A stretch of 64,000 bases of DNA from an uncultured Bacteroidales bacterium (GTDB lineage: Bacteria; Bacteroidota; Bacteroidia; Bacteroidales; CAIWKO01), in contig CAYXXU010000010.1 of the NCBI GenBank assembly GCA_964469155.1, forward strand, positions 306-64,305, given 5' to 3'. Position numbers and translations under genes: made by a program. A model generated the notes under the pieces. That model worked only from the letters and a program-made list of their open reading frames with translations. It made no database searches and was not told the DNA's origin. Shown here piece after piece: positions 39,411 through 56,699 of the stretch. Numbering within the stretch: position 1 is the first letter of the stretch; the number at the start of each line of letters is the position of its first letter.

Positions 39411-39685
39411 AATAATACTGTCTTTTAGGTTAATAATAAATGAATGATAAATTATAATAGATATGTTTATTAAAAAATTAGGAGGTGCTAATGTACAATA
39501 AATATTTGCTTGAGGCAAATTATTATGATTGTTTTTTTCAACTTTCTTCAATCCTGTTTTGTAAATAGCTGTTAGTGGTTTTTTTAATAGATATTTTGAC
39601 CTGATTTCAGCCATAGGGATTTAGCGAAATGATGAAATTATACCCTATTATTATTACTGCTATCGGCATTAGGCTGACAAAGGCA

Positions 39686-39730
39686 TAAAAAAAAACTTCC
39701 GGATCACAGCAACCCGGAAGTCTCTTTTTT
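39686..39730 (-). terminator. Rho-independent terminator after the fibre operon
   Basis: The 8-bp stem is ACTTCCGG (39695-39702) / CCGGAAGT (39714-39721). The plus-strand A9 run at 39686-39695 gives a U-run on the minus transcript. It lies 65 nt after the stop at 39796. Confidence 0.7.
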
Positions 39731-39740
39731 ATCTTCCCTA

Positions 39741-39776
39741 AAAGTCTGATAGCCATCAGCCTAATAGCCTATATCC
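39741..39776. repeat. AGYCTRATAGCC stutter just downstream of a stop codon
   Basis: AAAGTCTGATAGCCATCAGCCTAATAGCCTATATCC lies 20 nt from the stop at 39796. It shares its vocabulary with 50500-50540 and 12791-12832. Confidence 0.6.
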
Positions 39777-39795
39777 AAATATCCTTTTCTTATTG

Positions 39796-40599
39796 TTATG
39801 GTCTTATCACTTGCACTGCCGGTGGCTTCGAATTATTATCGATCATGGTCATATCCGAGCCATCCACAATGCCATCGCCATTTACATCCTCAGGATAATA
39901 TCCCTGCAAAGCAGGGGGTTTGCTGGCATTATCAACGGCAGTCATATCCGAACCATCGACGATTCCATCCTGTGTTGGATCGCCGCCCCAGATGGCATAA
40001 ACTGTGCCCATCAGCTTTTGATTATTGCCATAGGCCTGCGAAGCTGCTGTGCTGAAATCGTAACTGAATGGGCCTGCTCCACTAAAATTGTAAGGTTGGG
40101 CGCTCCATGTCTCTATACTATTCCGGTGCCTGATGGTAATATAGTACGAACCATTAGTATTTGAAGGCAGATTATTGATCTGAAGGCTTCCATCAGTATG
40201 CAGGTCAATATTATTGTCCTCGTAGAATATTCCATAGGGGGTAGCACTGTTATGCAATTCAACACTTACTTTGTCGGCAATGCCGGCTGAGAATTGCGGC
40301 CCTGAAGTGCCTTGTGCCTGGTTCATCATACCTCCTCCGGCATAGAGGCCTTCCAGAAATATTTTTATGGCTATCTGTTTTGCCATAATCTGCTGCCAGG
40401 TTTGCAGGAAACCTTGTGAGAGTGTGACGCTGCTGCCCGCCTGGGTGCCTATGATGGGTTCGCCTATGGCGAAGGCAAGGTAGCCTCCACTATATTGAGT
40501 ACTACCGCCCATGGAGTTTATTACTACGGGCTGAACCTGTTGTGCCTGCAAGGAGAGGCAGAGGGCGAGGATACTGAATGTTATTATTAGCTTTTTCAT
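39796..40599 (-). CDS. small secreted protein consisting of signal peptide, ~50-aa N-terminal segment and a stand-alone copy of the dockerin-like VIRP module
   Basis: 267 aa with a signal peptide (MKKLIITFSILALCLSLQAQ). Residues ~74-267 align over their full length with the C-termini of the 34926 and 50547 proteins (IFLEGLY ... HRNSIETWSA ... GDPTQDGIVDGSDM ... EDVNGDGIVDGSDM ... NSKPPAVQVIRP). The ATG is 10 nt after the stop of 40610-43159. Confidence 0.8.
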   Translation of the reverse strand: MKKLIITFSILALCLSLQAQQVQPVVINSMGGSTQYSGGYLAFAIGEPIIGTQAGSSVTLSQGFLQTWQQIMAKQIAIKIFLEGLYAGGGMMNQAQGTSGPQFSAGIADKVSVELHNSATPYGIFYEDNNIDLHTDGSLQINNLPSNTNGSYYITIRHRNSIETWSAQPYNFSGAGPFSYDFSTAASQAYGNNQKLMGTVYAIWGGDPTQDGIVDGSDMTAVDNASKPPALQGYYPEDVNGDGIVDGSDMTMIDNNSKPPAVQVIRP

Positions 40600-40609
40600 A
40601 CCTTTAGTT

Positions 40610-43159
40610 TTATTGTTTGTTGAGCAATTGGTCTATTTGTTTTTGCTGTTGTTCTATGATCTTTTTCAGTTCTTCAATCTGTTGTTGCTGTTCCTGCATA
40701 CCTTTGACCAAAGGCACCACAAACTCGGCATAGCGCAATCCATAGAAATCATCTTTGTTTTTAGGTTTATCCACACCACTGAAATCGTATCCCAAATCCT
40801 TGGCGGCTTGTTCTACTTCCTGGGCTATGAAACCTGTTTGCAGTTCCTGTGATTTCAATTGTTCCGATTCTTTTAACCTTAAACTATCGGGAGTTTTGTT
40901 GTATGAAGCAATGGCATCCATATCCAGATGATAAGTGACAGGACGAAGTTTCATAATGAAATCCAAGCCAAAATTCATATCCTGCACCTGCTTTTTGAAC
41001 CTGACATCCGAAACATTTGACCAATTGGCATAGCCACCAATGGAGGTGACACTATTATTGCCAATTCTTACCTGATTTGAGGCAGTAATTGAGGTATTAT
41101 AACCAAATGCACTGGAATTGGAATTGCTCGCTGATAGATTGGCATAAACACCGCAAGCTGTGTTGTAACCGCCAGTAGAGTTATAAGGTAATGCATAAAA
41201 TCCCAATGCAGTATTACCTTCACCGTCATTGTTTATTTCTAAGGCAGAGACTCCAATTGCTGTATTATAATCACCTGTTGAATTATTTTTAAGCGCAAAT
41301 AATCCCGAAGCTGTATTGTTACTCCCGGAGCTATTTTCATAAAGCGCCTGATCCCCCACAGCGGTGTTATTTATCCCAGTATTATCGGCTGCTGTACCAC
41401 TGCCATGTAATGCCTGAAATCCTACTGCAGTATTGTAAGTGGATCGGCCTGTAGTTCTGTTATCGGCAAGGCCCATTGCAGCGTACCCGATTGCAGTGCT
41501 TCTGCTGTTGGCTTTGTTGCTATATAATGCGTCATGTCCAATGGCAGTATTATATGATCCGGTTGTATTATCATGAAGCGCATAGCTTCCATGGGCTACA
41601 TTAGCACTTCCTGTGTTATTATATAATGCTGCATCACCAATTGCAATATTATAATTACCCTCTGTATTTGAATAAAGCGCTCCTGTACCATAAGCCGTAT
41701 TGCTTTGTCCTATGGTATTCGAATAAAGTGCATTGTATCCAGAGGCTGTATTCCAAGTACCGGTTGTATTGGAGAAAAGTGATTGACTTCCCATCGCAGT
41801 ATTCCATCTACCTGAGTTGATAGTCGGGGTTGGACTTCCTTTCATAGCCGAATAACCAACAGCCGTATTATGAGTTTCATATTGCGTGTTTTGAGTTAAG
41901 GCATAAAACATAGAATAGGCTCCGATAGCAGTACTTGCACTGTTAGTAACATTATTGTATAGAGCATAATATCCCAGGGCTGTATTGTTATTACCTATTG
42001 TATTATTGTATAGTGAATAATATCCCATAGCTGTATTTACTGCCCCTTCCGTATTATTATACAGTGTTCGATACCCAATGGCCGTATTAAATCCCCCTGT
42101 GGTGTTGGAATATAGGGGTAAATTTCCTAAGGCAGTGTTGCTGCTAATATTTGCAGTGCCTTTACCAACTGTAATTCCATTGAAACGTGCATCGGCACCC
42201 ACCACATCGAATTTATAGGTGGGCGAGGTGGTGCCTATACCCACATTGGTGCCGTTATCGTATATCAGTGAGTTACCACCCACTGTGGCTCCTGTGAATT
42301 TCACCACATAGTTGGTGGTGCCGCTGATGGTGGCATTGCCGGTGGGGCCCTGAATACCTTGTATGCCCTGAATACCCTGAATTCCGGTGGGGCCTTGTAT
42401 GCCCTGAATACCCTGTATGCCTTGTGCCCCGGTGGCACCCACAGCTCCCTGCGGGCCAACGGCTCCGCTGAGGTTGATACTCCAAATATTATAAGTGCCC
42501 GAGCCGGTTACGGCGTTTATGGTAACATTTAGCATACCGGTGGAGGGGGTGTAGCTTGTTATCAATCCGGTCATGTAGTTGGATGTGGAGTTGGCTATCA
42601 CTACGGTTTGTCCGTTGGTGTAGCTGAGTCCGGTGCCTACCACCAGGCTTTTCGCTCCGGTTGATATAGTGAGAGTGTTAGGAGATATGGTGGAATAGCG
42701 GTCGCCAGCGGCTCCGGCAATTCCTGTGGGGCCTGTAGGGCCGGTGGGGCCCGCAGTGCCGCTTTCTTTGGCATAGAGTGCATAAGGCACCGATACAAAC
42801 TGGTTGGTGCCCACCAATTGCCATGCTGTGCCACCGGCCGGGTCGATCTCTACCTTCAGAAAATAGGTGTTGCTGCCCCAACTGATGGTGCCGAAGTTGC
42901 CGGCTACCACACTGCCCTGGCCTATCTGCAAAGCAAACAGTCCGAAGGCATCGGTGGTTTTGCTGTGGGTTTCGATGTAAATGGCCGTGCCCGAAGCGCT
43001 GCCCTGAAGCAGGCTCAGTTTGAGAGCTACCGATTGATTGGCCAATACATTGCCGCTGCCATCGCGGGCTACGCCCTGGTAGTTGATGGCCTGTGGCGTT
43101 TGAGCATAGAGGGCTGTGCCGAGAATGCTCAGGAGGAGGATGAGGAGGAGTTTTTTCAT
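40610..43159 (-). CDS. secreted collagen-like fibre protein with NTAxG repeat shaft and C-terminal peptidase-S74 intramolecular-chaperone (tail-fibre/endosialidase chaperone) domain
   Basis: 849 aa with a signal peptide (MKKLLLILLLSILGTALYAQ).
- Conserved ~150-aa N-terminal domain.
- Gly-X-Y tracts ([19 protein letters not shown]; [40 protein letters not shown]).
- About 25 repeats of ~15 aa (NTAIGYRTLYNNTEG ...).
- C-terminus SDVRFKKQVQDMNFGLDFIMKLRPVTYHLD ... GFIAQEVEQAAKDLG ... YAEFVVPLVKGMQEQQQQIEELKK, the typical S74 autoprocessing chaperone signature followed by a coiled coil. Confidence 0.85.
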   Translation of the reverse strand: MKKLLLILLLSILGTALYAQTPQAINYQGVARDGSGNVLANQSVALKLSLLQGSASGTAIYIETHSKTTDAFGLFALQIGQGSVVAGNFGTISWGSNTYFLKVEIDPAGGTAWQLVGTNQFVSVPYALYAKESGTAGPTGPTGPTGIAGAAGDRYSTISPNTLTISTGAKSLVVGTGLSYTNGQTVVIANSTSNYMTGLITSYTPSTGMLNVTINAVTGSGTYNIWSINLSGAVGPQGAVGATGAQGIQGIQGIQGPTGIQGIQGIQGIQGPTGNATISGTTNYVVKFTGATVGGNSLIYDNGTNVGIGTTSPTYKFDVVGADARFNGITVGKGTANISSNTALGNLPLYSNTTGGFNTAIGYRTLYNNTEGAVNTAMGYYSLYNNTIGNNNTALGYYALYNNVTNSASTAIGAYSMFYALTQNTQYETHNTAVGYSAMKGSPTPTINSGRWNTAMGSQSLFSNTTGTWNTASGYNALYSNTIGQSNTAYGTGALYSNTEGNYNIAIGDAALYNNTGSANVAHGSYALHDNTTGSYNTAIGHDALYSNKANSRSTAIGYAAMGLADNRTTGRSTYNTAVGFQALHGSGTAADNTGINNTAVGDQALYENSSGSNNTASGLFALKNNSTGDYNTAIGVSALEINNDGEGNTALGFYALPYNSTGGYNTACGVYANLSASNSNSSAFGYNTSITASNQVRIGNNSVTSIGGYANWSNVSDVRFKKQVQDMNFGLDFIMKLRPVTYHLDMDAIASYNKTPDSLRLKESEQLKSQELQTGFIAQEVEQAAKDLGYDFSGVDKPKNKDDFYGLRYAEFVVPLVKGMQEQQQQIEELKKIIEQQQKQIDQLLNKQ

Positions 43160-43235
43160 GGGTGGTTGGGTTTTATGGTTTGTTATTTGTTTGTTTTCGT
43201 TTGAGCTATTTGGTGCAGTATGATTGTTGTGAAAC

Positions 43236-45833
43236 TTATTCCTGTCCTACGGCCACAATATTTATCGTATAGTTGGGCGATTGGGAGGTGGTTTTGGGGT
43301 TATAGATAAAGAGCTTGCCTCCTGATGTTGTAACAGTGGATAATGACATAATGACTTCGGCAAATCCGCCACCCGAAGCATTGGCAATATACACCACAGG
43401 TGCCGAGGTAAAGCTCTCGGGGAAAGTAAAACTGATGTTTACGGTTGAACCTGCCGTGATGGTTGTATTAACGGCTACGGTAGTTGAGAGAATTTTGCGT
43501 TGCACTGCATCAACTGCCCTGAAGGTACCTTTATTGTCTTTCACGGTTATGGTGCCACTGGTAACTACATTACCACTGAAATTTGCATTGCCATCGAAAC
43601 TTGCATCGCCGTTTTTATAAATGATGAGTGCATCGCTTCTAGCGGTATTGCTTGTACCATTTCCCACCACAAACAAGCGGTCTTCGGCAACCCAGCCATT
43701 TGTATTAGCAGGCGTATAATCCGTATTATAGCGTCCTATAACGGTTTCATAACCTGAAGGCGCAGTTGTATATGTGCCCATTGCTGTTGAAATACCACCT
43801 GAAGCTAGTGAGTTATAACCCATTGCTGTTGCATAAACTCCTGTAGCATCTGTATTGTAACCTATTGCTGTTGCAGATACCGCTGACGCATTAGTGAAGT
43901 ATCCCATTGCAGTAGAATATGAACCTGATGCGATTGAATTATCTCCCGTGGCAAATGCAGCTATCCCCTTAGCCTTTGTGCTACGCCCCATTGCTACTGA
44001 ATAATCACCTATGCTGTCAGTATTCCATTGCAAACCGTTAATATAACCTACTCTGAATGCGGCTTTATCAGGATACCACAACATGCGGGTACCGGCTCCG
44101 GATACGGGTGCAGCACCCGGACTTGATTTATAAGAGCCCACAAACAACACATTGCCTCCACCTGTGCCTGTGCCGTTGGCATGCAGCAGGGCTGTGGGCG
44201 TGCTTGTGCCCAATCCGGTGTTACCGTTTTTAAGCATAACCAGGGCATCACTCTTTTCAGAGCTGCCAGTGCCATTTCCCACAACAAAAAGGCGGTCAGC
44301 AGCATTCCATATCGTGGTGCTCATTGGTGTATAATCCGTGTTATATTGGCCTATTGCTGTTTCATAAGCTGAAGCTGCTTTGACGAAATTGCCTGTAGCG
44401 GTTGAGTAATCCCCTGCTGCTGTGGTATGGCTGCCCATAGCTGTTGAAACCATTCCGGAGCCTGTTGTTTCGGCACCCAGGGCAGTTGAATACCAGCCTG
44501 AACCAATGGTGTAGTAACCCAAAGCGGTAGCAGCACTACCAGAGGCATTGGTATATGATCCAATGGAGGTTGAAGCCTCGCCCGTAGCAGAAGCATTATT
44601 GCCGATAGCTATGGAAGTCACTTTTGAAGCACGTGAGGCAAAACCAATGGCTACTGCACTACTTCCTATTGCCTTAGAGTTATTTCCCATTGCCACAGAG
44701 TAATCACCGATACTATCCTTATTCCATTGTAATCCGTCGACATAGCCTGCCCTGAAAGCCGCTTTGTCAGGATACCACATCATGCGTGTTCCGGCACCGG
44801 ATACGGGCACGGAGCCGGGGCTTGCTTTATAAGTACCTGCAAATAAAACATTGCCTTGTCCCGTACCGGTGCCATTGGCATGCAGAAGGGCAGATGGTGA
44901 AGTTGTGCCTAAACCTATGTTGGTACCGTTATCATATAGCAGTGAGTTGCCGCCGGTTGTTGCACCGGTGAATTTCACCAGATAGTTGCTTGTGCCGCTT
45001 ATATTGGCACTTCCGGCTGGACCTTGTAAGCCTTGAATGCCTTGTAAGCCTTGAATACCTTGTATCCCTTGAGCACCTGTTGGTCCTTGAATCCCTTGGG
45101 CTCCGGTAGCACCATCAGGACCTTGGGGGCCTCTGGCACCACTTAGGTTTACATTCCATTGCGAAAAGGTTCCATAGCCTGCCACCGAATTTATATTAAC
45201 GTTGAGCAAGCCGGTTCCGGCATCGTAAGCTGTCACCACACCCACCATGTAATCGCTGAATGAGTTGGCTATAACCACCGTTTGGCCATTGGTATAGCTA
45301 AGTCCGGAACCAACTTCCAGACTTTTGGCACTAAGGTCTATACTGAGTGAAGTGGTGGATTGGCTGGCATAGCGGTCGCCGTCGGCTCCGGCAGTTCCTG
45401 TGGGGCCTGTGGGGCCGGTGGGACCTGCTGTGCCGCTTTCTTTGGCATAGAGTGCATAAGGCACCGACACAAACTGGTTGGTGCCCACCAATTGCCATGC
45501 TGTGCCACCGGCCGGGTCGATCTCTACCTTCAGAAAATAGGTGTTGCTGCCCCAACTGATGGTGCCGAAGTTGCCGGCTACCACACTGCCCTGGCCTATC
45601 TGCAAAGCAAACAGTCCGAAGGCGTCGGTGGTTTTACTATGAGTTTCAGAATAGACAACCATGCCACTAGCACTGCCGCTAAGTATGCTCAGGCGGAGGG
45701 CTACGGTTTGATTGGCCACAACATTGCCGCTGTTATCGCGGGCTACGCCCTGATAGTTGATGGCTTGGGGCGTTTGAGCATAGAGGGCTGTGCCGAAGAT
45801 GCTCAGGGTGAGGAGGAGTAGGAGTTTTTTCAT
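43236..45833 (-). CDS. secreted collagen-like fibre protein with YadA-head-like (Hep_Hag-type) repeats and a distinct C-terminal beta-rich tip domain
   Basis: ORF 43236-45878. I prefer the start [20 protein letters not shown] (ATG 45833), giving 865 aa.
- Same N-terminal domain as 40610-43159.
- Gly-X-Y tract [43 protein letters not shown].
- Two ~230-aa tandem modules ([57 protein letters not shown] ...) rich in SxAxG 14-mers.
- No S74 domain. The tip ([21 protein letters not shown] ...) is possibly lectin-like. Confidence 0.8.
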
Positions 45834-45875
45834 GGGTGGTTGGTTTATAATGTTTGTAATTAAGGAAATGGGTAA

Positions 45876-45883
45876 CAAATATA
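45876..45883 (-). promoter_or_regulatory. candidate -7 promoter box for the fibre operon
   Basis: Minus-strand TATATTTG (TAnnTTTG) lies 43-50 nt upstream of the ATG at 45833. A second match, TATTTTTG, is at 45913-45920. Confidence 0.35.
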
Positions 45884-45950
45884 AGAATTTTCAGATAGGT
45901 TTTAATAAGCAACAAAAATATTAACACTATTCTAATAAAGAATCAGGGAA

Positions 45951-46006
45951 ATTACCGAAATGAGTAGGGGATTTTACGGATATTGGGGGGGGAGAAGTCC
46001 GGAGTG
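45951..46006. repeat. conserved intergenic block (copy A) with TTACSGA direct repeats and GGGATTTTACGGA core
   Basis: ATTACCGAAATGAGTAGGGGATTTTACGGATATTGGGGGGGGAGAAGTCCGGAGTG aligns with 47571-47626. A second shared block lies at 46157-46191 and aligns with 47701-47734. Confidence 0.7.
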
Positions 46007-46251
46007 AAAAAATTTAACCACATAGACACATAGAAGCATAGAAGATTCAAGACTACATAAGGACACAATAAAAATTCATAGCAGAGCCTGCCTACCAATT
46101 AAAGTGCGCAGACTAAAAAAAAACTTGCCGCGGGGGGCAGGGAATAGGTAATAGTGGAGAGGGAATAATAAGGAGGGGAGGCCTGTCTGGCTTTGTGTAA
46201 GGCTGACAAGACTCCCCTTTTGCCGATTGATGATTGCCGATTGGCTTAGCC

Positions 46252-47190
46252 TTATTTCTTTACCAGCACGGTAACTTTGGCATCGAGGTCGGTTTCGTTT
46301 ATGAAAATGATAAATTTATTGTCGGGACCGGCTGCACTGCCTTTCAACTGTAGCCTAATTTTTGAAGCCAATTCGTTTGGCGGACTTTTCATTTCTGCAT
46401 CGGCAGTGGGTGCAAAGTAGAATTTCAGTGTTTTTGAGAATTTGCTGGTAACCACAATCATATCCTTGTCCGTAAAATCGAGTTCGAAAGCTTTGCTGGA
46501 TTGCTTCTGAATCTGAATGGTTTTGATATGAGTAACATAGTTGACGATGGTTTGGTCGAAATAATAAAGCATAGTAGTAGGGTTCTTATAGTTTTCGGCC
46601 AATATCACCAGCATATTGAGGTAAAGTTCATCGTACAATAACTTTACCTTGGTTTCAAAATCGGGTATGGCTTCCGATACATCGCCTTTCTTTTCTTTTT
46701 GCAGATCATATATTGCCTGGTAATCGTCGCGAATTTGGGTGAATTCGGCTTCCAGGCCTGCGCCCAAATCGGCTGCATACGTATGAGTGCCATTGATCAT
46801 ACGCTGCATCAGGAAAAATATGTTTTCCTGGGTTGCCTTGGAGTATTCAGAACGTCCGTAAGGATAAAACAACTGGTAAGTTCCCGAGGCCTTTTTGAAT
46901 TTGTATTCGACCAGGGGTTCCAGATCAAGTGATTTATCGACAAATTCTTTCATTTTGGCGTTTAGTTGCACTGTATAGTCCTGCCGCATCACCAGGTCGG
47001 CATCGTAGGTTTCGAGATTGCCAAAGATTTTTTCCCATACCTCTTTTGTGGCAAGCAGCCGGGGAGCATAAACGGGATTGTCGGCAGCTTTCATGCGCAT
47101 ATAATTGTCGTAGGCGACTTTCTGAATGCTGTCCTTTGAGGTGTTGATGGTGTAAAAAGGATTTTCGCTGTAAGGTTCTAATTTTTTCAT
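46252..47190 (-). CDS. hypothetical protein, no signal peptide, no recognised domain
   Basis: ORF 46252-47388. Its first 66 codons translate the 43-bp repeat array and the AT-rich leader, so I prefer MKKLEPYSENPFYTINTSKD (ATG 47190), giving 312 aa. The composition is protein-like, with a helical N-terminal two thirds and a beta-rich C-terminus. Confidence 0.6.
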   Translation of the reverse strand: MKKLEPYSENPFYTINTSKDSIQKVAYDNYMRMKAADNPVYAPRLLATKEVWEKIFGNLETYDADLVMRQDYTVQLNAKMKEFVDKSLDLEPLVEYKFKKASGTYQLFYPYGRSEYSKATQENIFFLMQRMINGTHTYAADLGAGLEAEFTQIRDDYQAIYDLQKEKKGDVSEAIPDFETKVKLLYDELYLNMLVILAENYKNPTTMLYYFDQTIVNYVTHIKTIQIQKQSSKAFELDFTDKDMIVVTSKFSKTLKFYFAPTADAEMKSPPNELASKIRLQLKGSAAGPDNKFIIFINETDLDAKVTVLVKK

Positions 47191-47270
47191 GATTTTAGTG
47201 TTTTTTTGATTAATAAAATTATTTTTCTTTATATGGTTACTATTTTTTTTTATTATTCGCTCGATGTGAA

Positions 47271-47453
47271 TCTGCAACTCCGAAAGTTTGCGATGACACC
47301 ACCCTGCAACAGAGTACTGCCTCCGAAAGTTTGCGACGACACCACCCTGCAACAGAGTACTGCCTCCGAAAGTTTGCGACGACACCACCCTGCAACAGAG
47401 TAATGCCTCCGAAAGTTTGCGATGACACCACCCTGCAACAGAGTACCGGCCTC
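47271..47453. repeat. 43-bp tandem repeat, 4 full copies plus partial ends
   Basis: The unit is CTCCGAAAGTTTGCGAYGACACCACCCTGCAACAGAGTAMTGC. It starts at 47278, 47321, 47364 and 47407, an exact spacing of 43, with 1-2 substitutions per copy. The array lies 80-260 nt upstream of the ATG at 47190. Confidence 0.9.
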
Positions 47454-47802: not shown

Positions 47803-48465
47803 CTAATTCAGTTTGATCAGCCCGTTTCTCAGGGCATATTTCACCAGGTCGGCAATAGTTTTCAGTTCGAGTTTTTCCATAATACTGACCTTATGGCTTT
47901 CGACGGTGCGCGGACTGATAAATAGTTTTTTGCTTATCTGGTTATAGGTTAACCCATCGGCAAAGCCTTTCAACACCTCGGTCTCGCGGGGACTGAGGCT
48001 GTTGGCTGCCGATTGTTCTCGGCTATCGGCCGATGCAAGCATTTTTCTATGGCTTTTGAAAATGATACGCGATACCCTGTCGCCGTAATATTCCTCGCCT
48101 TCGGCAATGGTATGAATGGCTTCGAGAAACTCATCGGCCGAACATTCTTTTGTCAGATATCCCTTCACACCGCATTTCAGGGCGCAAAGCACCGTGCCTT
48201 CATCGCCTGCAGCCGAAAGCATCAGCACTTTGATATCGGGATATCTTTCTTTCACTTCCATGGCCATGATATTGCCGTCCATATCGGGCAGGTTGATGTC
48301 GAGTATCAAAATGTGAGGTTGCACGGTACGTAATTTCACGAGCATAGAGGCTGCATCGCCGGTTTCGGAAACTACTTCAATGCTGTTGTCGGCCATAAAC
48401 ATGGCCCTGATGCCATCTCTTACAATCTTATGGTCGTCGACCATCGCTACTTTTATCTTCTGCAT
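47803..48465 (-). CDS. NarL/FixJ (LuxR-type HTH) response regulator
   Basis: 220 aa. The receiver has VAMVDDH ... ILDINLPDMDG. The C-terminal LuxR HTH reads LSPRETEVLKGFADGLTYNQISKKLFISPRTVESHKVSIMEKL. The ATG is 12 nt after the kinase stop. Confidence 0.9.
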   Translation of the reverse strand: MQKIKVAMVDDHKIVRDGIRAMFMADNSIEVVSETGDAASMLVKLRTVQPHILILDINLPDMDGNIMAMEVKERYPDIKVLMLSAAGDEGTVLCALKCGVKGYLTKECSADEFLEAIHTIAEGEEYYGDRVSRIIFKSHRKMLASADSREQSAANSLSPRETEVLKGFADGLTYNQISKKLFISPRTVESHKVSIMEKLELKTIADLVKYALRNGLIKLN

Positions 48466-48477
48466 GTTCGATCCGAT

Positions 48478-50346
48478 TTACGAAAACAAAGGTACAAAAA
48501 CTGTAAATATCATTCCGCCATTATTGTTTCGGGCTGCTTCAATAGTTCCGCCATTGAGTGTAACCAGCTCTTTACAAAGAATCAGGCCCAGGCCGGCGCC
48601 TTTTTCGGTTTTATCTTTTCCCAGCTTGCTTACGTTTTCCTCAATACGGAACAGTTTGCTGATGTCTTCGTCGGTCATGCCGGGGCCTGAGTCGCTTACC
48701 GACAGGGTGCCCATCGTTAGGTTTTTACCGTAAGTAAGGCTGATAGGGCTGCCCTTGCCCGAGAATTTGATGGCATTGCTAAGCAGATTTCGAACAATGG
48801 TCTGCATCATCATTTGGTCGGCTCTGATACAGCAATTTTCGTTTTCGTGCAGGTTGACCTGAATGTTTTTTTCGAAAGCCTGGGCCTGCACTTCTGCCTG
48901 GGCTGTGGTGGCAATATCCTTCATAGAAAGCTCAACAGGTTCCGGATTCAGTCGGCCCGTTTGTCCCATGGCCCATTGCAGCAGGTTGTTTAGCAGACTG
49001 TGTATGCTGTTGGCCGAAAGATTCATTTCGCTGATATAATCTTTCAGTTGGTCTTTTTCCAGCCTGTCGAGATTGGCATTCAGCGCCGATGTGATCTTCC
49101 CGAACGACGATACGGGCGAGCGCAGATCGTGCGATATGATAGAGAAAAACTTATCTTTGGTGGCATTCAGTTGTTGCAGTTCGAGGTTTTGTTTGTTGAG
49201 CAAGGCAGCCGTACGGCGTTTTTCGAAGAACAACCAGAATGTCGCGCCCAGCAGAAGCAAAAACAATGAAGCTATGATGATAAATAGATTACGCTGATTG
49301 CTTGCCCTATCGGCACGCAGGTTTTGCAGTTCCACTTCAGCTTGTTTTTGGACGATCATCCTTTCCTTTTTCTCGGTGTCATATTTGGTCATGATCTCCT
49401 GAAAAGCCGCTGTTTTCTCCAGATTGAATACCGAATCATTAAAGTACTCGTACTGAAGGCGGTTTTCCCAGGCGTTTTTATAATCGCCTTTGGCCTGGTA
49501 GGTTTCGCTCAGATTCTTATAGCCCCGCCTGATTTGCGATAAGGCGCCTATTTCTTTCGAAGCTTCTATTCCTTTTTGGATGATGCTGATGGCCTGATCG
49601 TATTTTTTCTGAACCGTAAGCAGGCTGGCCAGGTTCAGACTCATAAAAGCATAAGCCTCCTTGTTGCCACATTCAGAGTATTTCTCCAGACCTTTATTGA
49701 TATAGTAAGTGGCGCTATCGAACTGATATCGTTTGTAAAAGAAACCGGCCAGGCTGTTATACACATCGGCAGCCCCATCGCAACTATGTTTCAGATTGAA
49801 AAGGAAAAGGGCCTTGCGATAATTTTCTTTCATTTCCGCTGGGCGGTCCAGATCATCGAGCACCATAGCCATATTATACCACGAATCAGCTATTGATACT
49901 GTGTCGGTGGTTTTCAGACGGTAATTCAGTCCTTCGGTAAAATATTTCAAAGCCGTTTCATTCTCCTTCATCCGGTAATAGTCAATCCCAATGCTGTTGT
50001 TTGCCGAGCCTGTGAGCGCAGCATTATGAAGGGTTTCCGCCAGGCGGAGCGATTGAATATCACATTCCAGAGCCGCAGCAAAATTGGCATTCAGCCTATA
50101 CAGGTCGGCCAGCTTCGAGTTCATTTTAAACAACAGGTAAGGTTCAGCCTGCATTTCGGTGGCAATTTTCACCGCTGATCGCTGTGCACCCAACGCCGAA
50201 TCGGCAGGTAGGGCATCTATATGCTCCGAAAGGCGTTTCAGTAAATCGGAGGCTTTTTTATAATCAGGGTTTTGGTTTAGGTTTTGTCCGGAAAGCCGGG
50301 CACAGAACAAGCATAATAAGCAAACAATAGCAAGATTTCGTTTCAT
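48478..50346 (-). CDS. TPR-repeat sensor histidine kinase
   Basis: 622 aa. A signal peptide (MKRNLAIVCLLCLFCARLSGQ) is followed by a ~330-aa TPR-like periplasmic region and one TM segment (LFIIIASLFLLLLGATFWLFF). Then come a coiled coil, HisKA (FFSIISHDLRSPVSS) and HATPase (GAGLGLILCKELVTLNGG). Confidence 0.88.
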   Translation of the reverse strand: MKRNLAIVCLLCLFCARLSGQNLNQNPDYKKASDLLKRLSEHIDALPADSALGAQRSAVKIATEMQAEPYLLFKMNSKLADLYRLNANFAAALECDIQSLRLAETLHNAALTGSANNSIGIDYYRMKENETALKYFTEGLNYRLKTTDTVSIADSWYNMAMVLDDLDRPAEMKENYRKALFLFNLKHSCDGAADVYNSLAGFFYKRYQFDSATYYINKGLEKYSECGNKEAYAFMSLNLASLLTVQKKYDQAISIIQKGIEASKEIGALSQIRRGYKNLSETYQAKGDYKNAWENRLQYEYFNDSVFNLEKTAAFQEIMTKYDTEKKERMIVQKQAEVELQNLRADRASNQRNLFIIIASLFLLLLGATFWLFFEKRRTAALLNKQNLELQQLNATKDKFFSIISHDLRSPVSSFGKITSALNANLDRLEKDQLKDYISEMNLSANSIHSLLNNLLQWAMGQTGRLNPEPVELSMKDIATTAQAEVQAQAFEKNIQVNLHENENCCIRADQMMMQTIVRNLLSNAIKFSGKGSPISLTYGKNLTMGTLSVSDSGPGMTDEDISKLFRIEENVSKLGKDKTEKGAGLGLILCKELVTLNGGTIEAARNNNGGMIFTVFVPLFS

Positions 50347-50546: not shown

Positions 50547-53500
50547 TTACGGCCTTATCACATACACCGGCGGAGGTGCCGAATTGTTATCAACCATCGA
50601 CATATCCGACCCATCCACAATACCATCACCGTTAACATCTTCAGGATAATACCCATGGAGAATAGGGGGTTGGCTTCCATTATCAATAACCGACATATCC
50701 GAACCATCCACTATGCCATCCTGTGTGGGGTCGCCTCCCCAAATGGCATAAACTGTACCCATCAACTTCTGATTATCACCATAAGCTTGCGAAGCTGCTA
50801 TGCTGAAATCGTAACTGAAAGGACCCTGACCACTGAAGTCGTAAGGGAATGCACTCCAGGTTTCAATACTATTGCGGTGTTTGATGGTGATATAGTAGGA
50901 ATTGGTGGTGTTAGCAGGTAGATTGCTGAGCAGCAGCGTGCCATCGGTATGCAGGTCAATATCATTCACCTCGTAAAATATCCCGTAAGGGTTGGTATTG
51001 AAATGCAACGCTACATCCACCTTATCGGCGATACCAGCAGCAAATTGCGGCCCTGCATCACCCTGGGCCTGATTCATCAAACTGCCTCCGGCATATAGAC
51101 CTTCCAGAAATAGCTTTAGGTTTAATGTTTTGCTGCCTGAACCGGTAACGGTCAGATTCAGTGTAAAGGAACTATCGCAGCCATGTTTCGAAATGTAATT
51201 TGCATAATAGGTTCCTGCGGTAGTATAGTCTATGCCTTGCCAGGTAAAGGTTTGTCCGGTGCTGATAGTATGATTTTCAGTAATGTCATAGGAAGGATAT
51301 ATCATGGCAGTAACTTCCAGCCTCGAAGTACTTTCGCATCCGCCTATGGTCTGGCTTGCATAATAAAGGGTTGAGGTGGACAAAACATAAGAGGGTTGAA
51401 GCAAATTACCTCCGGTGGAAGCATCGTACCATTTAATTTCATTTCCGGTGGCCTGCAGACCGGCAATAGTGGCTTCATCGCAAAACGATTGCAGAGGATC
51501 TCCTGCAGGAGCATTGGCCATATTTACAGTAATTTCTACACTGGCACAAATACCCGTCGCGGCGCATCCTCCTTCGCCTCTGGCGAAATAAGTTGTGGTG
51601 GCAGTTGGTGAAACCAATAATGAACTGCCTGTGCCAATTGGTGTTCCTCCACATGAACCTTCATACCAATACCAGGTTTCAGCACCATTCAGATATCCTG
51701 CAATGACTGATAGGCTTACTTCTGAACCCATACAAATTGAATTGGATGTGGCACTCAGGGTGGGAACATCAGGTTGGGAGCAACCGATTTCTCCCAGTTG
51801 AAATTCACCAAATGATGTTACACCAAGAATTTGTGTACTGTTGGATGTTTTGTTACCCATGGTCGGATAGGTCCAGTTCGAGGCACTGTATTTTCCGCAA
51901 ACCAGATTGGATGTATTTACTCCGTTATCCAGATCACTTGTCGGGAAGTTGAAAACAGCATCATAAGTTGTAAATACTGTTCCTGTATTGCTTAAAGTCC
52001 AGGTGCGGTTTACCGTTTTAAGGTTGTTTATTTGCGATGCGTACAACACCTGATGATCGCCCGCTTGGGTTGATGCCATGATGTCGCCCGAAGTACTGAT
52101 ATTGGCAAAAGTCAATGCAACAGGAGTGTACATGGACGCAAGAGAATCGCCGGTTTCAAAAGTTTTGGACAGATTGCTGCCCGTAGCCATCTTTTTCTGC
52201 AGATTGCCAAATACGTGCCCCGATGTTCGTGCAACACTGGCCCCTGTCAGAATCAAACTGATCTTATTCTGCCCGGTTTTGATCACACCTGCTGTAAGTG
52301 TCAGGATGTTTCGGATATTGATGCCGGCATAGCCACTCAATGTCAGGCCGGCGGTGTTGTTGAGTGTCATGTTATAGAAGGTAGAATTATTGGTGCCACT
52401 ATGGGTTTGAGGAGCTGTCCCGTTAAAGGTAATGGAAGAACCTGTAGCAATACTCCCGTTATTTATAAAGTTACCCCCTGTTAAGAGCATAGTACCAATC
52501 CATAGAGTCCCGGCATTGATGGTAACATCATTTTTTACTGTAAGGTTAGAAGTAATAATATAAGCGGTAGGAGTCCCTGTTTCATTTATCAGCAGATTGT
52601 AGATGGGGGCAGTGCTGTATATCCTGATGATGGGGCTTCCTGATGTAGCAGCATCACCAATTTGCAGGGTTCCACCTGTAACATTATTGGTGGTTGCAAG
52701 ATTTTTATAGTCCGATGTACTGCTCGATGCCTTGGGTATAACAATGCTGCCACCGCTCATGGTGAAAGAGGATGCCGCATTGAAATCGAAAGGCGCAATA
52801 GATGTATTTGTTGAACCGAATTTGCAAACCGTAAACACCCCTCCCGATTGGTTGTAGGTAGTATTGCCGCCCGAATAAAACCTGCCTGCCACATTCAGTG
52901 TTCCGCCTTCAATGGTAATTTTTGAGTTGTTGTTATACACCAGATTATGGTCCTGTGCAGTTCCGATATTGATACTTCCGGCCGACATCCTGAGGAGGCC
53001 ATTGATGGTCCAACTGAAAGCACCTGCGGTAACAGTGCCGCCATTGTTCCAAAATCCGGCAAGTGCTACAATATTAACTGCAGAAGTAAAGGGGGTAATA
53101 ACTGATGCACTGGATAATTTAAAGGTCCCGCTGGTCAAGGTCAAAGGATTGGCTGCATTGGTCAGACCAATTAAGGAGGTTACTTCGAGAATCCTGTCCT
53201 GTGCACCTTTGACGAGGGTCAGCTTATTGAAATTTGTGACCGCCGAGCCTTTTACTGTTTGCAGATTATTAGTGCCGTTAAAGGTAATAGTTCCAATACC
53301 TGCCACAAAAGTACCATGATTTGTCCAGTCGCCGGCCACTTCCAGCAGGCTGCCCACCGAAGCGCTCATGGTAAGTGTGGCCCCTTCAGCTATGGTAATG
53401 TTTCTGCATCTGATATTGGACGTGCTGCTGATCAACGGCATATTGCTGACTCCTGCTGGTATATATACATCGGTAGTAGCAACAGGAACTGTATTATTGC

Positions 53501-56500
53501 ACCAGTTGGTTGCTACATTCCATGCCGTGCTGGTTGCACCTGTCCATATTCCTGTACAACTGCTCACCTGAATATCATCAATGGCCCAATAATAACCATA
53601 GCTGCCCGAATAATTCCATTTGAATTTTACCTGCGACTGTCCTGCAGCCCCTGGCACCGAAAATGACGCAGGCGCCGGATTGGTGGTTGATGCACTGAAA
53701 GTGCTTATCAGGTTCCATGTGGCTCCGTTATTAATGCTGTAATATACACTGGCACTGCTGCCGGTAGCATGCCTGTAATAATGATTGAAGGTCAAACTTA
53801 CAAAGGAATTTGCTGATAAATTGATGGTAGGAGTGATCAGGTCGGCATTTTGGGAAAAACCTGATCCATAGTCAAAGCTATTCAAATAGGCATAATTTCC
53901 GTTCAGTAAAGGAAGGTTCCCATCCTGGAAGGCCCCGGATTTCCAAACCTGTCCGATACCTGACTGATCCAGTTGGGTCCAGCAGTCCGGAATGGACGAA
54001 CCGTCAAAACTCTCAGTGAATGGAGCAGTATAAATACTACACATGGTTTGGGCGCTAACCATGGTTCCGCTCGAGTAGTTCAAGGAACCATCCACCGACC
54101 ATATCTTGTAATGATAAACTACATTTGTTGTTAAGCCGGTATGATTAAAAGATGTTAAACTGCCTGAATAAAGCACTGTTCCTCCTCCGGAGATGGTGTT
54201 TCCTGCTGAATAGCTTGCTCCGTTAACAGGAATACCAAATGTTGGAGCGGCCGACCATACTACCATAACATCATTGTTGTTTGAATTTTGGGTCCAGGTC
54301 AGGTCTATCTGGCTTGTCCCTGTCGCCGATACAGTAATATCAGATGGGTCGATAACCGTATATTCGATCAGGTCGCTTTGCCACAAACCACGTCCATAGG
54401 TCGCTGCTTTAATGCGGTTATTTGAGGCATTCGAAGGGTCGTAATAAATTTCAAGCTCCCTGATATCCACAGGGGGAAGTCCTTGCGAATAAAGCACCCA
54501 GTTTGGCATATTGGCATCTTTAAACCAGACCCCGGTCTGGTTTCCTATATAAAGCCCTTCATCACTGTTTTTATCATAGACCACACAATTGATAAAAAGG
54601 GGAGGCAGGTTACCGCTGATATCGGTCCAGGAGATACCCTTATCCGATGATTTGAAAACCTTATAACCGGCAGTAGCAAAGACAATATTCGCGTCATTGG
54701 GATGTGCCTCCATATCCGTGGGAGTAAGACCCAGAGGAAGTGCACATTGGGTCCAGCTAACACTGCCGGCGCTTGCATTTACATTGTCCGACCTGATAAT
54801 AGCACCATTTCTGACACCATACATCACATCCACATTGGCCGGCGATTGTTCTAGAACCCTTACCACATCTCCGGAAGGTGATATTTCTTCCCACGTTATC
54901 TGTGAAACAGCTGATTTAACATTCAAACACCGCTGAATACTCTGATAACCCAAAAACATAGTGTTCGGATTGGTTTCATGAAGTGTGTAAGGCGTCACCC
55001 AGGCATTATTGACCCAGACGGCCCCTCCGGTGATATAATTATAGGTGCTGCCCGTTGAACGGTAAATAGCTCCTGACTGATTGCTTACATAGCGGTAGTT
55101 GGCATCTGTGGGATCAATAAGGCATTCCATGCCGTCTCCGCCAATAACAGTAGTAAGATTGCCGTTGTCAGCAAAAGCGCTTCCATTGTCCTGTTCGCCA
55201 AGCATAACATAGCCTGCATGGGTCTTGCTCTGCCCGATCTTATAAACCTGGGCAATGGCCAATCCTGAGGATATCTCACTCCATGATGAACCTGAGTTGC
55301 CTGTCCAATGCACACCACCATCGTTTCCGGTAAAAAGCCTGGCTGTATGAGGCGACCATTCCAGACAATGGTGGTCAGCGTGAACTGAGGCAGCTCCGCA
55401 AGTGCTGTATGAACTTCCTTCCCAATGGGCAACTATCGAAAAACTTAAGCCTCCGTCAGTGGTTTTCCAGATATTGATACCTCCTATGTAAATGGTGTTT
55501 ACATCGGTTGGATCAATAGCCATGCACATATCGTAGACTGCCTGGCTCGATGCATCGGTACCGTCGCACATATATCCCATAAGATTTTTATAGCTTGATT
55601 GGGTGATATTCGTAAAATGTAAGCCATTGTCAGTTGACGTTCCTAAAGAGGAAAACGATTGATAAGGACCTGTTTTCAGCAGTACAACAAGAGAGGGATT
55701 TGCCGCGGATACGCCTATTACCATGCGGGGTCCCAGGCTGTTTCCTTCGCTGATATTGGTCCAGAGTTCACCACCATCAGCGGAACGGTAGAACTTTGAA
55801 CCATTGGAGGAGAATAATGCGGCATAAACTATGGATGGATCGCCGGGCTTATATTTTATATCCCTGAAATCACCCGCTTGTTTCAGACTCCAGCTACTGC
55901 CTCCGTTGATGGTTTTATATACACCTGTCTTTGTGGCTGCCAGAATGATATTGGGATCGGTGGGATGCATTAACATGGCTCCCACGGTAACATCTCCCAT
56001 AGTGCTATTGATCTGGCTCCAGCTGGCACCGCCATCAATCGATTTGAATACTCCCATTCCCGGTGCATCCCCTGCATCGCGATCGCCCGAGCCAATATAT
56101 ATAATGTCGGGATTGGTAGGATGAATCAAAATGGATGAAACACCCAGCTTAGGAAGGTCGTTCGACAGGTTGATCCAGGTGAGTCCGGCATCAGTGGTTT
56201 TCCAAAATCCCCCCGAAGGCGAACCCACATAAATTGTATTGGCATCGGTGGGATGAAATGCCAGGGCATTTACACGTCCCATACCGGTGGGTTGCACGGT
56301 AGCGTTGGCAGGATAGGAGTCCGGACCAACCAGGGTCCAGGTGCCCGTAGCCGATTTGTTGGGCAGTTGGGTTTGCATGTATTTGTTGTATTCGTTGCTG
56401 ACATACCCGGGTGCCTGCAATTTGCCATTGGGAAGTACTCGCGATTCGTTGATATATTCCCAACGTTTAAACACTTTATAGCCATTCCCCTTATAATTGC

Positions 56501-56699
56501 TTTTATTTTTCCAGTATGTATTAAAAGCGCTCTGAGCAGCAGTAAAGTCAACATCCGGGTCCTGTATCATTTCGAGCCACGATTTGCTGCCGGAATGCTG
56601 CACTAAATTGTCTTTTTTGGTTTGACTTATGACATGATTGCTTATTAGAAAAGCAAAAATCAGTATGAAATTCCTTATAAGACGCGCTGTAATATTCAT
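50547..56699 (-). CDS. giant secreted surface protein: BNR/sortilin-like propeller, Fn3, adhesin-like module, long beta-helix-like region, Ig-like Cys-rich modules, C-terminal dockerin-like VIRP module
   Basis: 2050 aa.
- The N-terminal ~770 aa are paralogous to 6026-8560 (shared YKVFKRWEY motif and Asp-boxes such as TTDAGLTW, SIDGGASW, TINGGSSW, TTDGGLSF, SSDKGISW).
- Then Fn3-like (DITVSATGTSQIDLTWTQ) and an adhesin-like module (PFTESFDGSSIPDCW).
- Then ~700 aa of G/T/N-rich beta-helix-like repeats, followed by Cys-containing Ig-like modules.
- The last ~194 aa are KTLNLKLFLEGLY ... HRNSIETWSA ... GDPTQDGIVDGSDM ... EDVNGDGIVDGSDM ... PPPVYVIRP. Confidence 0.85.
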   Translation of the reverse strand: MNITARLIRNFILIFAFLISNHVISQTKKDNLVQHSGSKSWLEMIQDPDVDFTAAQSAFNTYWKNKSNYKGNGYKVFKRWEYINESRVLPNGKLQAPGYVSNEYNKYMQTQLPNKSATGTWTLVGPDSYPANATVQPTGMGRVNALAFHPTDANTIYVGSPSGGFWKTTDAGLTWINLSNDLPKLGVSSILIHPTNPDIIYIGSGDRDAGDAPGMGVFKSIDGGASWSQINSTMGDVTVGAMLMHPTDPNIILAATKTGVYKTINGGSSWSLKQAGDFRDIKYKPGDPSIVYAALFSSNGSKFYRSADGGELWTNISEGNSLGPRMVIGVSAANPSLVVLLKTGPYQSFSSLGTSTDNGLHFTNITQSSYKNLMGYMCDGTDASSQAVYDMCMAIDPTDVNTIYIGGINIWKTTDGGLSFSIVAHWEGSSYSTCGAASVHADHHCLEWSPHTARLFTGNDGGVHWTGNSGSSWSEISSGLAIAQVYKIGQSKTHAGYVMLGEQDNGSAFADNGNLTTVIGGDGMECLIDPTDANYRYVSNQSGAIYRSTGSTYNYITGGAVWVNNAWVTPYTLHETNPNTMFLGYQSIQRCLNVKSAVSQITWEEISPSGDVVRVLEQSPANVDVMYGVRNGAIIRSDNVNASAGSVSWTQCALPLGLTPTDMEAHPNDANIVFATAGYKVFKSSDKGISWTDISGNLPPLFINCVVYDKNSDEGLYIGNQTGVWFKDANMPNWVLYSQGLPPVDIRELEIYYDPSNASNNRIKAATYGRGLWQSDLIEYTVIDPSDITVSATGTSQIDLTWTQNSNNNDVMVVWSAAPTFGIPVNGASYSAGNTISGGGTVLYSGSLTSFNHTGLTTNVVYHYKIWSVDGSLNYSSGTMVSAQTMCSIYTAPFTESFDGSSIPDCWTQLDQSGIGQVWKSGAFQDGNLPLLNGNYAYLNSFDYGSGFSQNADLITPTINLSANSFVSLTFNHYYRHATGSSASVYYSINNGATWNLISTFSASTTNPAPASFSVPGAAGQSQVKFKWNYSGSYGYYWAIDDIQVSSCTGIWTGATSTAWNVATNWCNNTVPVATTDVYIPAGVSNMPLISSTSNIRCRNITIAEGATLTMSASVGSLLEVAGDWTNHGTFVAGIGTITFNGTNNLQTVKGSAVTNFNKLTLVKGAQDRILEVTSLIGLTNAANPLTLTSGTFKLSSASVITPFTSAVNIVALAGFWNNGGTVTAGAFSWTINGLLRMSAGSINIGTAQDHNLVYNNNSKITIEGGTLNVAGRFYSGGNTTYNQSGGVFTVCKFGSTNTSIAPFDFNAASSFTMSGGSIVIPKASSSTSDYKNLATTNNVTGGTLQIGDAATSGSPIIRIYSTAPIYNLLINETGTPTAYIITSNLTVKNDVTINAGTLWIGTMLLTGGNFINNGSIATGSSITFNGTAPQTHSGTNNSTFYNMTLNNTAGLTLSGYAGINIRNILTLTAGVIKTGQNKISLILTGASVARTSGHVFGNLQKKMATGSNLSKTFETGDSLASMYTPVALTFANISTSGDIMASTQAGDHQVLYASQINNLKTVNRTWTLSNTGTVFTTYDAVFNFPTSDLDNGVNTSNLVCGKYSASNWTYPTMGNKTSNSTQILGVTSFGEFQLGEIGCSQPDVPTLSATSNSICMGSEVSLSVIAGYLNGAETWYWYEGSCGGTPIGTGSSLLVSPTATTTYFARGEGGCAATGICASVEITVNMANAPAGDPLQSFCDEATIAGLQATGNEIKWYDASTGGNLLQPSYVLSTSTLYYASQTIGGCESTSRLEVTAMIYPSYDITENHTISTGQTFTWQGIDYTTAGTYYANYISKHGCDSSFTLNLTVTGSGSKTLNLKLFLEGLYAGGSLMNQAQGDAGPQFAAGIADKVDVALHFNTNPYGIFYEVNDIDLHTDGTLLLSNLPANTTNSYYITIKHRNSIETWSAFPYDFSGQGPFSYDFSIAASQAYGDNQKLMGTVYAIWGGDPTQDGIVDGSDMSVIDNGSQPPILHGYYPEDVNGDGIVDGSDMSMVDNNSAPPPVYVIRP

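Follow-up and report, generated by a model that had tools for sequence, protein, structure and literature searches.

A candidate MAT-like surface-fibre operon of Bacteroidales with a small, motif-bearing partner protein

Introduction

How can a fibre protein that carries no recognised outer-membrane export signal be fixed at the surface of a Gram-negative cell? This question is raised by three consecutive genes in a 64,000-nt stretch of DNA from an uncultured Bacteroidales bacterium (the window, G000:C10:306-64305; the assembly has 4.25 Mb in 154 contigs). The first two, g1 and g2, encode collagen-like fibre proteins, and the third, g3, encodes a small protein that ends in what we call the VIRP module. 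We read the locus as a Bacteroidota version of the mosaic adhesive trimer (MAT) fibre system in one operon, in which g3 would be the adaptor or anchor for the fibre base, and put the probability of this reading at roughly 60%.

Chimeric MAT fibres were described in one predatory bacterium, Bdellovibrio bacteriovorus, where 13 fibres have an S74 domain (SDxxxK), 8 lack it, and tips are swapped; the surface element bound by the MAT N-domain was stated as unknown (Caulton et al. 2024, PMC10769870). In the literature, we found no description of MAT-like fibres in Bacteroidota or of the partner protein reported here.

Results

A conserved N-motif accompanies the fibre genes

The genes and their parts are the following.

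43236-45833, minus strand: g1, 865 aa from the ATG; the frame extended from a TTG reaches 45878
45429-45773, minus strand: g1 N-domain (residues 21-135), the conserved fibre base; fibre-base profile match of 4.7e-65 in its own genome
45006-45434, minus strand: g1 collagen tract 1 (45372-45434), middle domain and collagen tract 2 (45006-45140); Pfam Collagen 1.3e-9
40610-43159, minus strand: g2, 849 aa
42755-43099, minus strand: g2 N-domain (residues 21-135), predicted beta-sandwich with one helix
42332-42760, minus strand: g2 collagen tract 1 (42698-42760), middle domain and collagen tract 2 (42332-42466); Pfam Collagen 2.3e-9
40790-41011, minus strand: g2 Peptidase_S74 intramolecular chaperone (PF13884, 1.4e-9, residues 717-790), with SDVRFK at 40994-41011
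39796-40599, minus strand: g3, 267 aa; signal peptide, N-motif and VIRP tail
40390-40542, minus strand: g3 N-motif (residues 20-70), QVQPVVINSMGGSTQYSGGYLAFAIGEPIIGT...LSQGFLQTW
39799-40383, minus strand: g3 VIRP module (residues 73-267); beta-sandwich, two dockerin-like Ca-loop repeats and the VIRP end

The initial annotation described g3 as a signal peptide with a stand-alone VIRP copy. This overlooked residues 20-70, which form a separate conserved N-motif with the family consensus Q-S-[IL]-x-P-x-V-I-x-S-x-G-...-[ST]-L-S-W-T-[LI]-G-E-...-E-T-F-...-L-T-Q-G-F-Q-Q and are covered by no model in Pfam, NCBIfam or PHROGs. We searched for the motif with six-frame hidden Markov models (HMMs) and by exhaustive search of representative proteins, as a word-index search was too insensitive (3 proteins). 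Among 1.84 billion representative proteins, 9165 contained the motif at E <= 1e-3. The best 150 of them were almost all 155-175 aa long, and in them the motif follows the signal peptide directly, at residues 18-78. About 30 full-length proteins in public data combine the N-motif with VIRP, all of them annotated as hypothetical.

Some motif proteins are larger. The product of L010:10457-13558 (G080) has 1034 aa, N-motifs at residues 24-66 and 602-646, leucine-rich repeats and a type IX secretion system (T9SS) C-terminal sorting domain (CTD), while those of L013, L018 and L021 are 447-471 aa long with extra domains. Across these four loci the additions are adhesin-type leucine-rich repeats, SpaA-like or BspA domains; the motif is therefore attachable to larger surface proteins.

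A six-frame HMM search of the whole 4.25-Mb genome recovered exactly four N-motif open reading frames (ORFs), all abutting fibre genes, and five fibre paralogues with differing C-termini at three loci. The motif genes other than g3 are listed here.

C4:14949-15749: second VIRP-tailed N-motif gene, 266 aa, directly after the S74 fibre gene C4:12783-14936
C62:15105-15623 and C62:18307-18825: two CTD-type N-motif genes, 172 aa each, each directly 5' of a fibre gene

In 151 genomes sampled evenly across the order, the fibre-base profile matched 99, with up to 26 copies per genome. Both elements were detected in 86 genomes, the fibre base only in 13, the motif only in 2 and neither in 50 (odds ratio 165, p = 3.5e-25, uncorrected for phylogeny). 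Across Bacteroidota, the base occurs in Bacteroidales, Flavobacteriales/Vicingaceae, Sphingobacteriales, Chitinophagales (including Segetibacter koreensis DSM 18137), Saprospiraceae, Aureispira and Ohtaekwangia. We profiled linkage in a phylum-wide set of 117 loci (1.41 Mb, 175 fibre ORFs and 83 motif genes), in which 78 of the 83 motif genes had a same-strand fibre gene within 250 bp (the motif gene being upstream in 69 cases and downstream in 9) and none had an opposite-strand fibre gene within that distance. A single motif gene often heads two to four fibre genes that have the same base and different tips (L050-L052, L035), which fits a common adaptor for the conserved base.

The N-motif, and not VIRP, is the element conserved with the fibre genes. 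The earlier proposal that the third gene is an adaptor or anchor fits this evidence; what did not hold was the attribution of that role to VIRP, whereas it is the N-motif that tracks with the fibres. Fibre and partner genes of the VIRP-type clade can be separated by a further gene of about 2 kb (L118, L001, L049). In the L118 locus (L118:2650-8831, Bacteroidota metagenome-assembled genome JBAWXL010000038), this further gene encodes an M4 peptidase (FTP/Peptidase_M4).

Fibre proteins share a base and differ in shaft and tip

The initial annotation gave g1 and g2 a common N-terminal part of about 150 aa. The proteins are in fact collinear over approximately 330 N-terminal residues and then diverge. 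The common part consists of the N-domain (residues 21-135), a (GXY)7 tract (134-154), a middle domain of about 75 aa, a (GXY)15 tract (232-276) and a neck (ISGT.NY.VKFTGAT.GGNSL.YDNGTN.G.GTTSP). Within it, nucleotides 201-400 of the two genes (45434-45633 and 42760-42959) are 99% identical, with only 60-76% identity in the flanking 100-nt blocks; this patch is consistent with recent gene conversion, which would have acted on the common base. The leaders of g1 and g2, a stretch of about 20 nt in front of the ATG, are also nearly identical (45834-45870 and 43160-43200, …AAACCAACCACCCATGAAAAAACTCCT), and the duplication therefore took in the translation-initiation region.

After the neck, g2 continues with an NTAxG-type repeat shaft, a C-terminal part similar to phage tail spikes and the putatively self-cleaving chaperone. 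The PF13884 match scores 38.5 bits (cut-off 22), and the catalytic SDxxxK motif is SDVRFK, which starts at residue 717 and makes Ser717 the predicted cleavage residue. In g1, the neck is followed by two YadA-head-like repeat units of about 235 aa and by a beta-rich tip of about 110 aa. The units are a tandem duplication (window 43734-44870, residues ~320-700, with ...DYSVAMG present twice), and Pfam YadA_head matches at 2.9e-25, with matches in the Protein Data Bank (PDB) to BpaC and Hep_Hag heads. Pfam detected no S74 domain in g1. The short collagen tracts in both proteins, the S74 chaperone in one of them and the YadA-head-like repeats in the other had all been proposed from the letters alone, and the profile matches bear these proposals out. 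Signal peptides, likewise predicted at the outset for the two fibres, are visible in g1, g2 and g3 and end in ...YAQ or ...LQAQ.

Collagen, YadA-head and S74 modules are obligate trimer formers. We consider it most likely, from their domain composition, that g1 and g2 are exported by Sec and form trimeric fibres.

The base of g2 is predicted with confidence by AlphaFold2 (AF2; predicted local distance difference test, pLDDT, 91-98 over mature residues 1-105, monomer prediction). Foldseek comparison of the base with the PDB returned only generic Ig-like sandwiches and no fold at E < 1e-3. A PDB sequence search gave nothing for g2, and for g1 only trimeric autotransporter heads and collagen. The sequence relationship to MAT fibres was assessed with the NCBIfam model NF053851, Bdello_MAT_N (cut-off 60 bits), as a proxy for Bdellovibrio N-domain sequences. 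All five fibres of the genome matched below this cut-off (g1 at 41 bits, 1.2e-10; g2 at 29-36 bits), as did 72 of 72 fibre bases stripped of their signal peptides (best 3.3e-11). Without its signal peptide, g2 matched at 4.6e-9, with mature residues 2-67 aligned to model positions 13-79.

The general plan is also shared. In both systems a signal peptide is followed at once by a conserved beta-rich N-domain (~115-130 aa) that lacks structural homologues in the PDB, one base is combined with exchanged shafts and tips in a family of many paralogues, S74 (SDxxxK) and non-S74 classes coexist, and shaft modules are phage-derived. The differences are that in g1 and g2 the base is succeeded by collagen tracts and by the middle domain, a second conserved domain, that a genetically linked, dedicated partner is present here whereas the binding partner of the Bdellovibrio N-domain is unknown, and that the hosts belong to different phyla; a role in predation is not implied for the Bacteroidales fibres. 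We therefore filed the fibres as a probable Bacteroidota branch of the MAT kind, on remote homology, and not as members of the curated Bdellovibrio subfamily.

Two other kinds of fibre were compared. The head repeats of g1 (residues 388-715; YadA_head/Hep_Hag, PDB 7o23 and 3s6l) resemble those of the trimeric autotransporters YadA, BpaC and Ata. As a candidate trimeric autotransporter, g1 was rejected: Pfam and NCBIfam detect no C-terminal YadA-anchor beta-barrel, the C-terminus is a soluble beta-rich tip, and NCBIfam autotransporter models score far below cut-off (43 versus 2500 bits). The C-terminus of g2 resembles phage tail spikes of the endosialidase/T5 pb1 type (PF13884), both in its S74 domain with SDxxxK and in its tail-spike match in PHROGs (residues 592-847, phrog_4636, 1.9e-72). 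Unlike a tail spike, g2 starts with a Sec signal peptide and a cellular base, and its context is chromosomal and not that of a phage.

That second resemblance raises the question of whether the locus is the tail-fibre module of a degraded prophage, a tailocin or a contractile injection system. Besides phrog_4636, the shaft and C-terminus of g2 match phrog_23837 (2.5e-56), and collagen tracts, like S74 chaperones, are typical of fibres from phages. PHROGs matches in the N-terminal base are confined to the collagen tracts, and g3 has none; both fibres carry Sec signal peptides; and 99 of 151 genomes of the order have the base as a chromosomal family with multiple copies. Almost all of the 66.7-kb contig falls within the window, and the nine proteins that flank the operon have only cellular Pfam domains, with no phage structural, lysis or integration gene among them. 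They include a histidine kinase with tetratricopeptide repeats (TPR), a LuxR-type regulator, large adhesin-like proteins, and transglutaminase-like and MORN/TPR proteins. We rejected a phage origin of the locus, given this cellular context and the PHROGs results on the base and g3, and regard it as very improbable. The flanking genes and the multi-copy base instead support the reading, made at the outset from the absence of phage genes nearby, that these genes probably encode a cellular surface-fibre system.

The partner exchanges a T9SS sorting domain for a VIRP tail

The C-terminal part of the partner protein is variable. Of 33 fibre-adjacent motif proteins, 27 end in Por_Secre_tail; the C62 partners, for instance, have a T9SS type-A sorting domain (PF18962 at 53 bits, TIGR04183 at 47.5 bits). 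In T9SS type-A export, as in Porphyromonas gingivalis, the CTD is removed by the PorU/PorV/PorZ attachment complex and the cargo is linked to anionic lipopolysaccharide (LPS). The usual partner resembles a minimal cargo of this type, made of a signal peptide, the 50-aa motif, a short linker and a CTD, and its mature form would be little more than motif and linker because the signal peptide and CTD are removed. It differs from other type-A cargo in that the payload is a tiny putative docking motif and not an enzyme or adhesin. The window departs further, as neither g3 nor the fibres have a CTD: Por_Secre_tail (PF18962/TIGR04183) is not matched in g3, and neither it nor any other sorting domain is matched in g1 or g2 (Pfam and NCBIfam).

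A VIRP-type tail stands in place of the CTD in two groups. One contains the partners of the window, C4, L001, L041, L049 and L118, a clade with the signature ...LTQGFLQTW; the other contains those of L056 (Sphingobacteriales) and of L008 and L009 (G070). Tail type requires at least four changes on the motif tree and on the fibre-base tree (shuffled mean 9.6; 0 of 500 shuffles were as low). The fibre base of the window falls in a clade with 97% support, all seven members of which have VIRP-type partners. It follows that the partner diversifies in step with the base and that swaps of the tail were repeated events. VIRP tails are patchily distributed (14 of 151 genomes of the order), and the genomes whose partners carry VIRP-like tails, G070 and G073, have at least 21 such tails. 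The genome studied here also contains at least 150 Por_Secre_tail ORFs, so that T9SS is fully in use beside VIRP.

The exchange of tails hints that Bacteroidota may have a second mechanism for fixing proteins to their surface. What is new from this window is the replacement of the T9SS tag by a dockerin-like VIRP tail, together with a link to cohesin-bearing proteins.

The same observations bear on another role for the motif protein, namely that it is mainly an export adaptor. It would grip the CTD-less fibre in the periplasm and its tail, CTD or VIRP, would carry the complex through an outer-membrane translocon, with anchoring secondary. This account overlaps with ours, because the two differ only in the step that needs the partner; for it to hold, VIRP would have to act as an export signal too. 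It would explain why the fibres have a Sec signal and no sorting domain, and it suits the C-terminus of g2, which is taken up by a chaperone that is probably cleaved off. The partner is nearly always CTD-tailed, this genome makes heavy use of T9SS, with at least 150 CTD ORFs, and CTD and VIRP have replaced each other at one position at least four times, which makes most sense if the two tails serve a common purpose that includes export. Other VIRP proteins must leave the cell too, and no T9SS CTD was detected in the two that lie in this window. On the other side, we neither know of nor found in the literature a precedent for a large trimer that rides piggy-back through T9SS, T9SS CTD models show no detectable similarity to VIRP, and the best structural match of VIRP is to a docking module and not to a secretion signal. 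We judge an export adaptor to be a minority possibility, with about one chance in four.

The VIRP module weakly resembles X-dockerins and co-occurs with cohesins

The genome encodes 11 VIRP copies, of which two belong to the small g3-type proteins and the other nine to ORFs of 452-2484 aa. The module of g3 is 61% and 77% identical to the C-termini of neighbouring proteins of 1562 and 2050 aa, respectively. Pfam Dockerin_1 matches it at 26.7 bits (cut-off 22.9), over one repeat only. In the AF2 model of g3 (alignment of 30 sequences), the beta-sandwich at residues 74-205 has a pLDDT of about 90, and the dockerin-like two-helix end has 44-72. The top folds found by Foldseek were type II X-dockerins (2b59_B, 5g5d_B and 4fl4_I; probability 0.99, E ~2e-3), matches that are nevertheless weak.

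Type II X-dockerins of clostridial scaffoldins share with VIRP a C-terminal beta-sandwich followed by two Ca-loop (DxNxDGxxD-like) repeats. They lack the conserved ...V(I/K)RP C-terminus, and the context of VIRP is different in being a Gram-negative host with no cellulosome.

Pfam Cohesin was detected in 10 of 14 VIRP-positive genomes and in 33 of 137 others (p = 6e-4). In other Bacteroidales genomes, single ORFs combine one to three cohesins with a C-terminal VIRP-like tail, a scaffoldin-like architecture reminiscent of CipA. Examples of these ORFs, and the sole cohesin protein of the genome under study, are the following.

G080:C172:5003-6775: cohesin and VIRP
G095:C257:8872-11901: cohesin and VIRP
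G095:C129:5928-9770: cohesin and VIRP
G073:C148:19533-23078: cohesin and VIRP
G094:C14:7971-9356: cohesin and VIRP
G070:C23:21036-22298: cohesin and VIRP
G136:C85:41111-43738: cohesin and VIRP
C88:15712-17013, minus strand: sole cohesin protein of its genome (PF00963, 38 bits); at a contig end and possibly N-terminally truncated

The C88 protein also has two dockerin-like loops (GDIDTNDYV... and GNVDGVGSVTANDAS...) and a T9SS type-A CTD. As a cohesin protein with such a CTD, it is therefore a candidate surface socket for VIRP tails.

Transcription signals and neighbouring genes

The gaps between the genes, 76 nt (g1/g2) and 10 nt (g2/g3), agree with the coordinates given at the outset, and the signals at the two ends are as originally described.

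~39686-39730, minus strand: terminator-like hairpin 3' of g3 (CTTCCGG, 11-nt loop, CCGGAAG, then T9), read directly
45876-45883 and 45913-45920, minus strand: two Bacteroidetes-type -7 boxes (TATATTTG and TATTTTTG), TAnnTTTG consensus match only

An automatic terminator scan missed the hairpin because its loop limit of 8 nt is below the 11-nt loop. The -7 boxes lie 43-87 nt 5' of the g1 ATG as a candidate operon promoter and are the only TAnnTTTG sites on the minus strand of 39600-46300; the element is not enriched in the window (56 found versus 66 expected), which makes it weak promoter evidence. A sigma-70 promoter scan was uninformative because promoters of Bacteroidota do not resemble those of sigma-70. 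The short gaps, the presence of just one terminator, after the third gene, and the same-strand adjacency kept in other genomes support the prediction that the three genes form one operon.

Upstream, a 378-aa ORF (46252-47388) matched nothing in Pfam or PHROGs and lacked homologues at all of the 120 loci compared, and we left it out of the system because of this. Homologues of the TPR-sensor histidine kinase and the LuxR-type regulator occur near the fibre loci of several other genomes, as do homologues of the Sortilin/VPS10-like N-terminal part of the 2050-aa VIRP protein (window 47803-50346 and 50547-56699 for these neighbours); the loci concerned are L001, L006, L008, L016, L045 and L110. 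These recurring neighbours may constitute a regulatory or functional neighbourhood.

Paralogues of about 255 aa (…RIP..L.TF….EYL…PG…; C-terminus …RWINT..P…GPW.G…) are encoded at 10858-11613 of the window and at C4:11625-12398, the latter immediately upstream of the second fibre locus with a VIRP-tailed partner. No tRNA genes were found in the window. Its sequence was present in 17 DNA metagenome runs, from wastewater and, more distantly, sediment, sludge, wetland and soil.

Discussion

Our analyses suggest how the parts of this system could work together. The fibres would trimerise through their collagen, YadA-head and S74 modules, and the chaperone of g2 would cut itself off at Ser717. The N-motif of g3, predicted to be unstructured alone, would bind the invariant fibre base, and the C-terminal tail of g3 would fix the fibre complex at the cell surface. 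In partners of the CTD form, the tail would be removed and the protein linked to LPS, and in partners of the VIRP form the tail would plug into a cohesin-bearing surface protein.

Several points weigh against this reading. The motif, which would contact the base, has a pLDDT below 50 in the monomer model of g3, as a flexible linker equally would. The Bdello_MAT_N alignments fall below the cut-off and span only about the first 65-110 model positions. The X-dockerin fold matches are weak (TM score 0.26/0.41, root-mean-square deviation 12 A). The motif was not detected in 13 of the 99 fibre-positive genomes, a count to be read with the fragmentation of many assemblies and the shortness of the motif in mind. 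At L120:8001-9005 (JGI 3300034058), a 334-aa N-motif/VIRP homologue has no fibre base within 8 kb; its neighbours are small genes that lack annotation, of which one has DUF4123 and another faintly matches Phage_lysozyme. Finally, the fibres carry no recognised outer-membrane export signal, and the reading does not account for the passage of fibres or VIRP-tailed proteins across the outer membrane.

Some of these points would also suit an independent small protein that shares only its regulation with the fibres and has no binding to their base, such as an assembly cap, a co-receptor or a regulator of display. The monomer model shows the motif as unstructured, larger motif proteins exist that have adhesin-type domains of their own (L010, L013, L018 and L021), and the L120 gene lies away from any fibre gene. 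Such independence is hard to reconcile with the same-strand adjacency of 78 of 83 motif genes and the odds ratio of 165, with the joint diversification of partner type and fibre-base clade, or with the typical 160-aa partner, which is almost only motif once the signal peptide and CTD are subtracted. We consider it improbable, at odds of the order of one in ten, and retain g3 as the preferred adaptor or anchor of the fibre base.

A more general proposal can be made only tentatively, and we hold it to be rather less probable than not. The motif protein could be a trans-acting sorting and anchoring subunit for fibres that lack their own export signal, and VIRP a second surface-delivery tail that is interchangeable with the T9SS CTD. 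As a natural experiment, the tail swap sets apart what the motif does from what the tail does.

If this general proposal is true, these Bacteroidales would run an outer-surface cohesin-dockerin network beside LPS-linked T9SS anchoring, and g3 would plug fibres into it, for example at the T9SS-anchored cohesin protein C88:15712-17013. By extension, the receptor of the Bdellovibrio MAT N-domain might be sought as a similar short docking peptide. About two thirds of the sampled Bacteroidales lineages have a related fibre base, which also occurs across the phylum, and the near-constant, tiny partner gene of this base is a concrete candidate for the missing MAT anchor or export adaptor. The fibres, whose tips are swappable and phage-derived, are likely to be major determinants of the adhesion targets of these abundant wastewater, soil and aquatic bacteria.

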